7,425 nt of DNA from a virus (Duplodnaviria; Heunggongvirae; Uroviricota; Caudoviricetes): the IMG/VR virus record IMGVR_UViG_2690316131_000009; one strand, written 5' to 3'. The position numbers and the translations under genes are program-made. Shown here piece after piece: positions 64 to 1,166 of the stretch (positions are counted from its first letter, which is position 1; each line of letters starts with the position of its first letter). The notes below the pieces were generated by a model. The model searched no databases. It saw only the letters and a list, made by a program, of their open reading frames with translations, and was not told where the DNA came from.

Positions 64-687
64 TCAGCGAGTCAGCTTGGGAAGAAATGACCTGCTTATT
101 CGCACCTTCCATAACATATTGACAGCAACACGCATCCGCTCTTCCAGCAACAAGCGACTGAACATGTGCCCTTCATTTTTCAGTTTTATCTTTAACAAAC
201 TCTCACTCATATGCAGGCGTAACGCAATCGCACCAAGCGTCCAGCTTGCTGATATATCTGTCTGAATTATCGCCCTGACTTTGGCACTTATACTGGATAA
301 ACATCCACTTAAAAATAATAATATCCGTTCATCTGATTCAAACAGCGACAGGCATGCCATCATAAGAAACATATCCGTGGTATCTCCGGAAAATCTCTGG
401 CTGGTAATTAAAGCCTCAGCCAACGCAGGGTTGTTGGGTTCCAGTGACAGATAAAGCGGAACGTCAGTCAGATGAGTTCTTGTCAGCTTATGCTGAATTT
501 CCAGATATTGACTTACTATGGAATGGTTTATATCGAAAATTTTAACTTTGCCATAATGCATAAGGAAAAGCGCCCTGATGCATTTGGTGGCCAGAACGAC
601 TGAGCCGGGCTTAAGTGACAACGTATCCTTTTCAAGAAAAATATTAATTGGGGAGCAAACCATGATAACTGAACAGACAACAACCAT
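64..687 (-). CDS. AraC-family transcriptional regulator, AppY/YdeO/GadX-like; C-terminal second HTH appears missing or frameshifted (possible pseudogene)
   Basis: 207-aa ORF. N-terminus MVVVCSVIMVCSP resembles the AppY/YdeO N-terminus as I recall it. C-terminal part (LHMSESLLKIKLKNEGHMFSRLLLEERMRVAVNML) looks like the first HTH of an AraC-type domain, but the ORF stops about 15 aa later without the second HTH. AT-rich, rare AGA/ATA codons. ATG at 687..685 with weak SD. Confidence 0.75.
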   Translation of the reverse strand: MVVVCSVIMVCSPINIFLEKDTLSLKPGSVVLATKCIRALFLMHYGKVKIFDINHSIVSQYLEIQHKLTRTHLTDVPLYLSLEPNNPALAEALITSQRFSGDTTDMFLMMACLSLFESDERILLFLSGCLSSISAKVRAIIQTDISASWTLGAIALRLHMSESLLKIKLKNEGHMFSRLLLEERMRVAVNMLWKVRISRSFLPKLTR

Positions 688-722
688 TATAATTTTACTT
701 TCATTAGCAATTGGTTAGTTCA

Positions 723-753
723 ATTATAGCCCCAAAAGGTAAATTATCATCAA
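723..753 (-). promoter_or_regulatory. Candidate sigma70 promoter for the AraC-like gene
   Basis: On the minus strand a perfect TATAAT (728..723) lies about 35 nt upstream of the ATG, with a TTGATG -35-like hexamer (753..748) at a suboptimal 19-nt spacing, in AT-rich DNA. Sequence-only prediction. Confidence 0.3.
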
Positions 754-810
754 CACATAAGCAAAGGACTGACAGGTGCCGCTAACACCCACCAGCCGCC
801 CATTTACCAC

Positions 811-838
811 AAATAAAAAAGCCTTCAGGACTGAAGGC
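811..838 (-). terminator. Intrinsic terminator (minus-strand transcripts)
   Basis: Perfect inverted repeat GCCTTCAG/CTGAAGGC (821..838) followed on the minus strand by a run of six U then AUUUG (complement of the plus-strand A-run 811..820). The hairpin overlaps the last codons of the upstream small ORF. Confidence 0.6.
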
Positions 839-1022
839 GTCTGTAACAACCGAACTGATAATCTGCCAGACCCGCCATAACAAGCTGGGTCAGTATTAAC
901 TGGCAGCGTTCGCGTGAAAGATAAGTGTTCTGCGCAATTTCCTCGACGGTCGCCGGTTCGGTGACGCTTAATTCATTAAACACCACTCTGGCGGTTTCGG
1001 TCATATCCTGCTGTTTTAGCAT
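825..1022 (-). CDS. Small hypothetical protein (65 aa), possibly winged-helix DNA-binding
   Basis: The ORF-track start at 1145 abuts the terminator U-tract, so the internal ATG at 1022..1020 (MLKQQDMTETARV...) preceded by AAAAGGGAAAAAGG is preferred. Segment TVEEIAQNTYLSRERCQLILTQLVMAGLA has a helix-turn-helix-like pattern. No confident family match. Confidence 0.5.
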   Translation of the reverse strand: MLKQQDMTETARVVFNELSVTEPATVEEIAQNTYLSRERCQLILTQLVMAGLADYQFGCYRRLQS

Positions 1023-1145
1023 GCCTTTTTCCCTTTTCCGGTTAACGTGACACACCAATAACTCTTGTCGAAAAAGCCAGCAAGCTGAAAGAACGGTATT
1101 AATAACCACCAGCGAATTTATTGCGCTGCTGTATATTACGGACAC

Positions 1146-1166
1146 AAAAAAACCACCTTCCGGTGG
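1146..1166 (-). terminator. Intrinsic terminator about 100 nt downstream of Q (tR'-like)
   Basis: Minus-strand RNA reads CCACCGGAAGGUGG (GC-rich 5-bp stem, GGAA loop) followed by seven U. Position immediately after the Q gene matches where lambdoid phages place the late-operon terminator tR'. Confidence 0.6.

Follow-up and report, generated by a model that had tools for sequence, protein, structure and literature searches.

What does a lambdoid prophage carry immediately downstream of its late antiterminator gene Q, and could a regulator encoded there still act on the host? The question is raised by IMG/VR record IMGVR_UViG_2690316131_000009, a stretch of 7,425 bp (the window) that is the whole of a short-read draft contig (CYDD01000110.1, assembly GCA_001284925.1). 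On its minus strand, the gene for a Q-type antiterminator (1794..1264) is followed by a small open reading frame (ORF) at 1022..825 and by an AraC-type ORF of 207 amino acids at 687..64, exactly where the first-pass annotation had placed them when it proposed that the two ORFs are regulator cargo. Very probably, the AraC-type ORF is what is left of psrA, broken by an insertion sequence (IS) within the known moron slot downstream of the late promoter pR' of a lambdoid prophage, and the small ORF is a backbone gene of that slot. We hold this description of the anatomy of the locus with high confidence, and the account of its dynamics given below with moderate confidence.

Truncation of the AraC-type gene

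A DNA search aligned window positions 113-760 with positions 1178604-1179251 of Escherichia coli O157:H7 Sakai, with 648 of 648 nucleotides identical. The matching segment overlaps ECs_1087 of prophage Sp4, which is annotated as an 'AraC-family transcriptional regulator' and is referred to as 'psrA (ecs1087, Sp4)' in a 2026 PLoS Pathogens paper (PMC13502914). Because the window is identical to ECs_1087 over this segment and the literature equates psrA with ecs1087, the ORF is by its sequence psrA, a member of the Psr family, but a truncated one. Only the 5' part, codons 1-192 of 237 (111..687, minus strand), is present, and the chimeric frame continues through IS sequence as far as a stop codon at 64-66. 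The closest protein (P0001) has 237 residues, is 99% identical and belongs to a cluster of 2,285 member sequences. Among 5,426 complete E. coli genomes, 726 contain sequence related to psrA, the median being two copies.

PsrA, PsrB and PatE are prophage-encoded AraC-like proteins that raise the expression of GadE and YhiF, activate acid resistance and indirectly repress type III secretion encoded by the enterocyte effacement locus (LEE) (2024 review; PMC13502914). Xenogeneic silencing of psrA has also been reported (PMC13502914). The class that the first-pass annotation assigned to the ORF was therefore right, and so was its statement that prophage-borne AraC regulators rewire acid-resistance and virulence regulons, since according to the literature psrA is an activator of the glutamate decarboxylase (GAD) acid-resistance system and a repressor of type III secretion. 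What had been overlooked is that the gene is incomplete.

The interrupting DNA is the right end, including the terminal inverted repeat, of an IS5-like element of the ISKpn26 type (1..110, plus strand), the remainder of which lies off the contig; the assignment to ISKpn26 was made from these 110 nucleotides of element terminus. Window positions 1-112 are 100% identical to multicopy DNA that is found on chromosomes as well as plasmids and reaches 43 copies in a single genome, and the multicopy match sits directly 3' of genes annotated as 'IS5-like element ISKpn26 family transposase'. Several comparisons place the boundary at the same point. Megablast matches to E. coli genomes start at window base 110, a pairwise alignment breaks at 110/111, and homology to psrA loci ends at 110/111.

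By cutting psrA after codon 192, the element removed residues 193-237, the last 45, which include the second helix-turn-helix (HTH) motif, and put 15 IS-encoded residues in their place. In the intact homolog, Pfam HTH_18 is matched at residues 155-230 and the second HTH lies at 202-224. The 207-residue ORF, on the other hand, matched no Pfam family at E < 0.01 and gave no HTH_18 match. HTH_AraC, for which the cutoff is 26.6 bits, reached 14.3 and covered the first HTH only, and the NCBIfam YdeO model aligned over model positions 1-194 of 253 only. The window copy thus lacks the complete C-terminal AraC-type domain, which comprises about 100 residues and two HTH motifs, and does not pass the Pfam AraC models. 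In AraC domains of the MarA/Rob type both HTH motifs contact DNA. From what is known of the domain in this family, loss of the second HTH should therefore abolish DNA binding, and the truncated regulator is most probably unable to bind DNA. The window copy of psrA should be treated as an IS-truncated pseudogene for which we infer loss of function. Since the copy is inactivated by the IS, no regulon effect would be expected from it, and the suggestion of a host-acting regulator is corrected in this respect.

The interval between Q and the lysis genes

Both ORFs had been assigned to the late-operon slot after Q, the position of the Shiga toxin genes (stx) in Shiga toxin-encoding (Stx) phages, and the gene order of relatives bears this out. 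We compared E. coli E2865 (L001), Sakai Sp4 (L010) and a further locus (L005), which share window positions 110-1154. Where psrA is intact, relatives run from Q through the small ORF, psrA, tRNAs, esterase, holin and lysozyme to terminase. The genes from psrA onward are tRNA-Ile, tRNA-Arg, TerB, DUF3927, a SASA (NanS-p) esterase, a class II holin, lysozyme, Rz and terminase in E2865; ileZ, argN, argO and esterase, and then IS629 and pchA, in Sp4; and TerB, holin and lysozyme in L005. In these relatives the psrA site is thus the interval between Q and the lysis cassette, the one that carries stx in Stx phages, and lysis genes are present in every relative examined. The Stx phages phiP27 and Stx2a_WGPS2 have the order Q, variable genes, small ORF, DNA methyltransferase, tRNAs, stxAB, and esterase or holin. 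On the upstream side of the tRNAs, psrA therefore stands in for the methyltransferase, and the position of stx is immediately downstream of the tRNAs. A moron insertion site following the Q-antiterminated PR' has already been described, with Sp4 among the examples (Tree et al. 2014).

Other properties of psrA are those of a moron. It was seen behind three types of Q (DUF1133, a 123-residue PF06530 type, and PF03589), which fits a mobile cassette. It is missing from the same site in related phages: the leader of CP-933N/Sp6 is followed directly by TerB, and Stx phages and many prophages have the methyltransferase there. Its base composition differs modestly from that of its surroundings, with a GC content of 0.416 for psrA and 0.38 for the spacer at 688-824 against 0.484 for the whole window. 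The small ORF, at 0.495, does not share in this, so that the description of the slot as AT-rich holds only in part. Prophages are coupled to the GAD and LEE regulons through psrA, and both the gene and this role were reportedly published in 2011, in the work of Tree et al. on the Psr family. With the pR'-proximal moron site, Sp4 included, described in 2014, the first-pass proposal correctly rediscovers what was known, and the finding adds nothing new of its own.

Several relatives also carry extra cargo between Q and the late promoter and terminator (positions 1366-3755 in L011-L016, 2693-4256 in L025 and 3056-4285 in L024). Some of these genes are on the reverse strand, one of them encoding an NA37-family protein; a GIY-YIG nuclease is another example. 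Here, upstream rather than downstream of pR', lies another hot spot of insertion.

The strong terminator expected after Q is present at 1140..1176 (minus strand), about 90 nucleotides past the Q stop codon. It is a tR'-like intrinsic terminator, a hairpin with an A-tract and a U-tract and a core stem at 1166..1153 (folding free energy, dG, -23.9 kcal/mol; z-score -5.8), in which the seven-U run UUUUUUUGUG (then GUG) supplies the 3' strand when the stem is extended. Sakai Sp10, whose annotation contains no AraC-type gene, and a Salmonella prophage have the same type of Q and a terminator at the equivalent position. The block from Q to the hairpin is conserved with these two loci, and divergence sets in before the terminator, each locus having a terminator of its own. 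Such a pattern is as expected of a Q-specific late promoter and Q-utilisation (qut) site followed by tR'. The candidate late promoter/qut block would occupy 1190..1263 (minus strand), where TTGCTT-17-TTGAAT is followed by TAAGCT, and is conserved with other DUF1133-type Q loci.

A second intrinsic terminator follows the small ORF (811..838, minus strand). Its hairpin (838..821) has a 7-bp GC-rich stem, followed by UUUUUUAUUU, and holds the stop codon of the small ORF in its loop; it is identical in Sakai Sp4. Next comes a hairpin of 14 pairs at 767..797 (minus strand; dG -20 kcal/mol, z-score -2.2) with a poor U tail, also conserved in Sp4, and then a sigma-70-like promoter candidate for psrA at 723..750 (minus strand). 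The latter reads ATGATA-16-TATAAT, agrees with the consensus at 10 of 12 positions, lies 36 nucleotides upstream of the ATG at 687 and falls in a block that is 100% identical to Sp4. The two terminators consequently enclose the small ORF alone, contrary to the earlier view that they bracket both genes; neither of them is 3' of the regulator gene, whose 3' end is the IS. Judged by these motifs, psrA looks independently promoted and yet placed where Q-modified polymerase would also transcribe it.

Between tR' and the small ORF there is a conserved leader of about 130 nucleotides (1023..1154, minus strand), which is common to loci with four types of Q. It starts at the U-run of the intrinsic terminator, even where reverse-strand cargo separates Q from the terminator. 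The leader is also present in CP-933N and Sp6, both of which lack the small ORF and psrA: window positions 1028-1154 are 86% identical to the DNA after Q in EDL933 CP-933N (L008 16866-16991) and Sakai Sp6 (L004 9266-9391). The small RNA EvrS has been mapped in EDL933 to the post-Q interval of CP-933N. HnrS was considered as a short pR'-tR' transcript and dropped, as the expected seed against a ribosome-binding site was not evident and the published text gave no sequence. Scanned against Rfam at E <= 1, the window in its entirety gave zero matches.

The first ORF after tR' (825..1022, minus strand) encodes a 65-residue protein of the phrog_331 (phiP27 L23) family. Its AlphaFold2 model, with a predicted local distance difference test (pLDDT) score of 86.7, has the topology H1-H2-H3-beta-hairpin, and Foldseek matched it to the winged-helix domains of IclR (TM-score up to 0.81), MarR and SelB and to the N-termini of O-methyltransferases. 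On the strength of the model we are confident that the protein is a winged helix, as had been suggested. It is not a TrmB protein by Pfam, scoring 18.4 bits with TrmB (cutoff 25.6) and 16.3 with DprA_WH (cutoff 22.9), although 'TrmB family transcriptional regulator' is the NCBI label on many of its 327 homologous clusters, which are spread over the Enterobacteriaceae (E. coli, Shigella, Salmonella, Klebsiella, Citrobacter and related bacteria). The PHROGs function category is 'unknown'. When 1.84 billion representative proteins were searched with a profile, only 87 clusters of the small protein emerged, nearly all of them small stand-alone proteins; the family is thus a narrow one, confined to enterobacterial phages.

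The small ORF was found behind four types of Q, Stx phages included, mostly with psrA absent and an N6/N4 DNA methyltransferase next downstream, and the same leader of about 130 nucleotides precedes it in every locus inspected (L001, L005, L010, L011, L017, L020, L024 and L025). The copies in the window and Sakai Sp4 differ by 11 synonymous and 2 non-synonymous changes, which points to purifying selection. In Sp4, where the ORF is annotated as ECs_1086, it is frameshifted by a 1-nucleotide deletion that destroys the wing. Since Sp4 is the psrA locus of the literature, this argues that PsrA may not need the small protein. Codon 27 (window 942-944, minus strand) encodes Glu in the window copy and Gly in at least 90% of 40 aligned homologs. 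The gene therefore belongs to the conserved backbone of the late leader and is neither cargo specific to psrA nor psrA's partner, so that of the first-pass description the fold stands and the pairing does not.

The cargo directly downstream of the 65-residue gene varies: it can be the methyltransferase, psrA, or tRNAs and stx. The protein could conceivably be a dedicated late-leader regulator of the cargo genes of the slot, toxin genes included, a proposal that we regard as unlikely. The function of this small gene, which opens the late region in the loci inspected, Stx phages among them, is the only element of the finding not yet described.

The minus-strand order in the window is Q, the candidate pR'/qut block, tR', the conserved leader, the 65-residue winged-helix gene with its own terminator, the promoter-like site and psrA. 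In a lysogen carrying an intact relative of this locus, polymerase starting at the Q-proximal promoter would halt at tR', and psrA, transcribed from a promoter of its own, would act on the GAD and LEE circuits, activating gadE and yhiF and thereby repressing LEE type III secretion, the role assigned to it in the literature. Upon induction, Q-modified polymerase would pass both terminators and read the small ORF together with psrA, the tRNAs and the lysis genes into one transcript, as it does for stx.

Alternative readings of the locus

A locus that stops inside a repeat invites the suspicion that the IS-psrA junction was created by short-read assembly and that psrA is intact in the real genome. 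Ending 110 nucleotides into a multicopy IS is indeed typical of repeat-limited assembly. What is more, the junction was found in none of the 5,426 complete E. coli genomes, the 726 with psrA-related sequence included, and exact-pattern scans of genome representatives and metagenome contigs gave no match to it. However, reads must cross the junction for a contig to enter a repeat at all, the break falls cleanly at the terminus of an IS, and the identical chimeric 207-residue ORF occurs in a second, independent draft assembly (GCA_001285885.1). An assembly artefact is for these reasons very unlikely. Because of the second assembly, the insertion is probably real and lineage-specific; the IS lies inside the late transcription unit. 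If the junction is genuine, the truncated PsrA, consisting of the N-terminal domain, the first HTH and the 15-residue IS tail, might still be active, for instance as a dominant-negative protein whose N-terminal domain titrates other paralogs of the Psr, GadX or YdeO kind. The 207 codons stay open behind the native promoter region and start codon, the chimeric allele is present in two assemblies, and partners could exist, given the median of two copies in psr-carrying genomes. Against this, activator function should be lost, as both HTH motifs contact DNA in AraC domains of the MarA/Rob type, and an open frame is the default expectation after a recent IS insertion and no sign of selection. Psr proteins are not known to oligomerise, and we consider residual activity of this kind unlikely.

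The proposal from which the analysis started, that the winged-helix and AraC proteins form an intact and functional regulator pair, a single cargo unit co-induced by Q, draws on the common orientation of the two ORFs downstream of Q and tR' and on the small ORF, which is intact in the window and apparently under purifying selection. It has to contend with an AraC ORF that has been cut by an IS and is without its second HTH, with the intrinsic terminator and separate promoter-like site between the two genes, with the occurrence of the small ORF behind four types of Q without psrA and usually beside a DNA methyltransferase, and with its decay to a frameshifted pseudogene in Sakai Sp4. The odds on such a pair are, in our estimate, extremely small. 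We therefore favour an IS-broken psrA in a known moron slot, next to a backbone gene, although some observations weigh against this reading. The contig stops inside the IS, so that the sequence seen includes neither the 3' remnant of psrA nor this prophage's own lysis genes. A consensus scan did not call the candidate late promoter in 1190..1263, and promoter-like sites in the region are no more frequent than expected from shuffled sequence, which makes the psrA site a candidate only. Lastly, the 2024 review places psrA at z1789 in OI-50 (CP-933N) and psrB at z2104 in OI-57. Its position for psrA is not reconciled with re-sequenced EDL933 or Sakai Sp6, as tblastn found no match to a psrA homolog in Sakai Sp6 or in CP-933N of re-sequenced EDL933. 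We followed the assignment to Sp4 and ecs1087 because the sequence matches that locus.

Prophage context and known systems

The window is the segment with the replication, nin and Q genes and the late leader of a lambdoid prophage, and the E. coli lineage that it comes from is of pathogenic type. It carries DnaC-like, DUF968, RusA and Q genes, and its relatives run on into lysis and terminase genes. All long ORFs of the window except two are encoded on the minus strand, where the gene order is a DnaC-like loader, DUF977, DUF4406, DUF4014, an HNH nuclease, DUF968, RusA and the 176-residue Q-type antiterminator; the right end of the contig cuts the DnaC-like gene. The Q gene (1264..1794, minus strand) matches Pfam DUF1133 with 365.5 bits and Phage_antitermQ with 35 bits (cutoff 26), as well as phrog_753, 'anti-termination protein Q-like', with an E-value of 8e-74. 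Between the HNH and DUF968 genes, on the strand opposite to their nin-region neighbours, lies a toxin-antitoxin pair of the parD/parE type (3634-3891 and 3897-4196, plus strand). A hairpin with a T-run is found near 4275-4315, after the parE gene.

The closest known system is psrA of Sakai Sp4 (ECs1087). Its identity with the window extends over the promoter region and codons 1-192, and in both loci the small ORF lies on one side of psrA; in Sp4, where psrA is uncut, the ileZ and arg tRNAs lie on the other, within the Q-to-lysis region. The two loci differ in that the window psrA is interrupted by ISKpn26, in their Q proteins (DUF1133 type in the window, 123-residue PF06530 type in Sp4), in a CAAX-protease gene that stands between Q and the leader in Sp4 and not in the window, and in the small ORF, frameshifted in Sp4 and intact in the window.

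At the protein level, YdeO and then GadX were the best curated-model matches to the window ORF, and the domain plan of an N-terminal domain and a C-terminal double HTH is common to them and PsrA. Orthology with YdeO was rejected, since the equivalog cutoff is 348 bits and the score was 71. AppY of DLP12, the precedent named in the first-pass annotation, lies at the far end of that prophage and not in the Q-to-lysis slot. PsrB and PatE of enterohaemorrhagic E. coli are the same kind of prophage-borne AraC-like regulator, feeding the GAD acid-resistance regulon as activators of gadE and hdeA. They are paralogs located in other prophages or islands and are set beside psrA here by description only; PsrB is reported to be 90% identical to PsrA (2024 review).

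The stx moron site, as found in phiP27, Stx2a_WGPS2 and Sp5, shares its transcription unit and its landmarks (Q, tR', the small ORF, tRNAs, the NanS-p esterase and holin) with the psrA-type loci. Stx phages differ from these in having a methyltransferase where psrA sits, upstream of the tRNAs, and stxAB downstream of the tRNAs. The L23 protein of phiP27 is 98% identical to the 65-residue protein of the window, which departs from the phrog_331 family by Glu27 in place of Gly, and it is likewise encoded by the first ORF after tR'.

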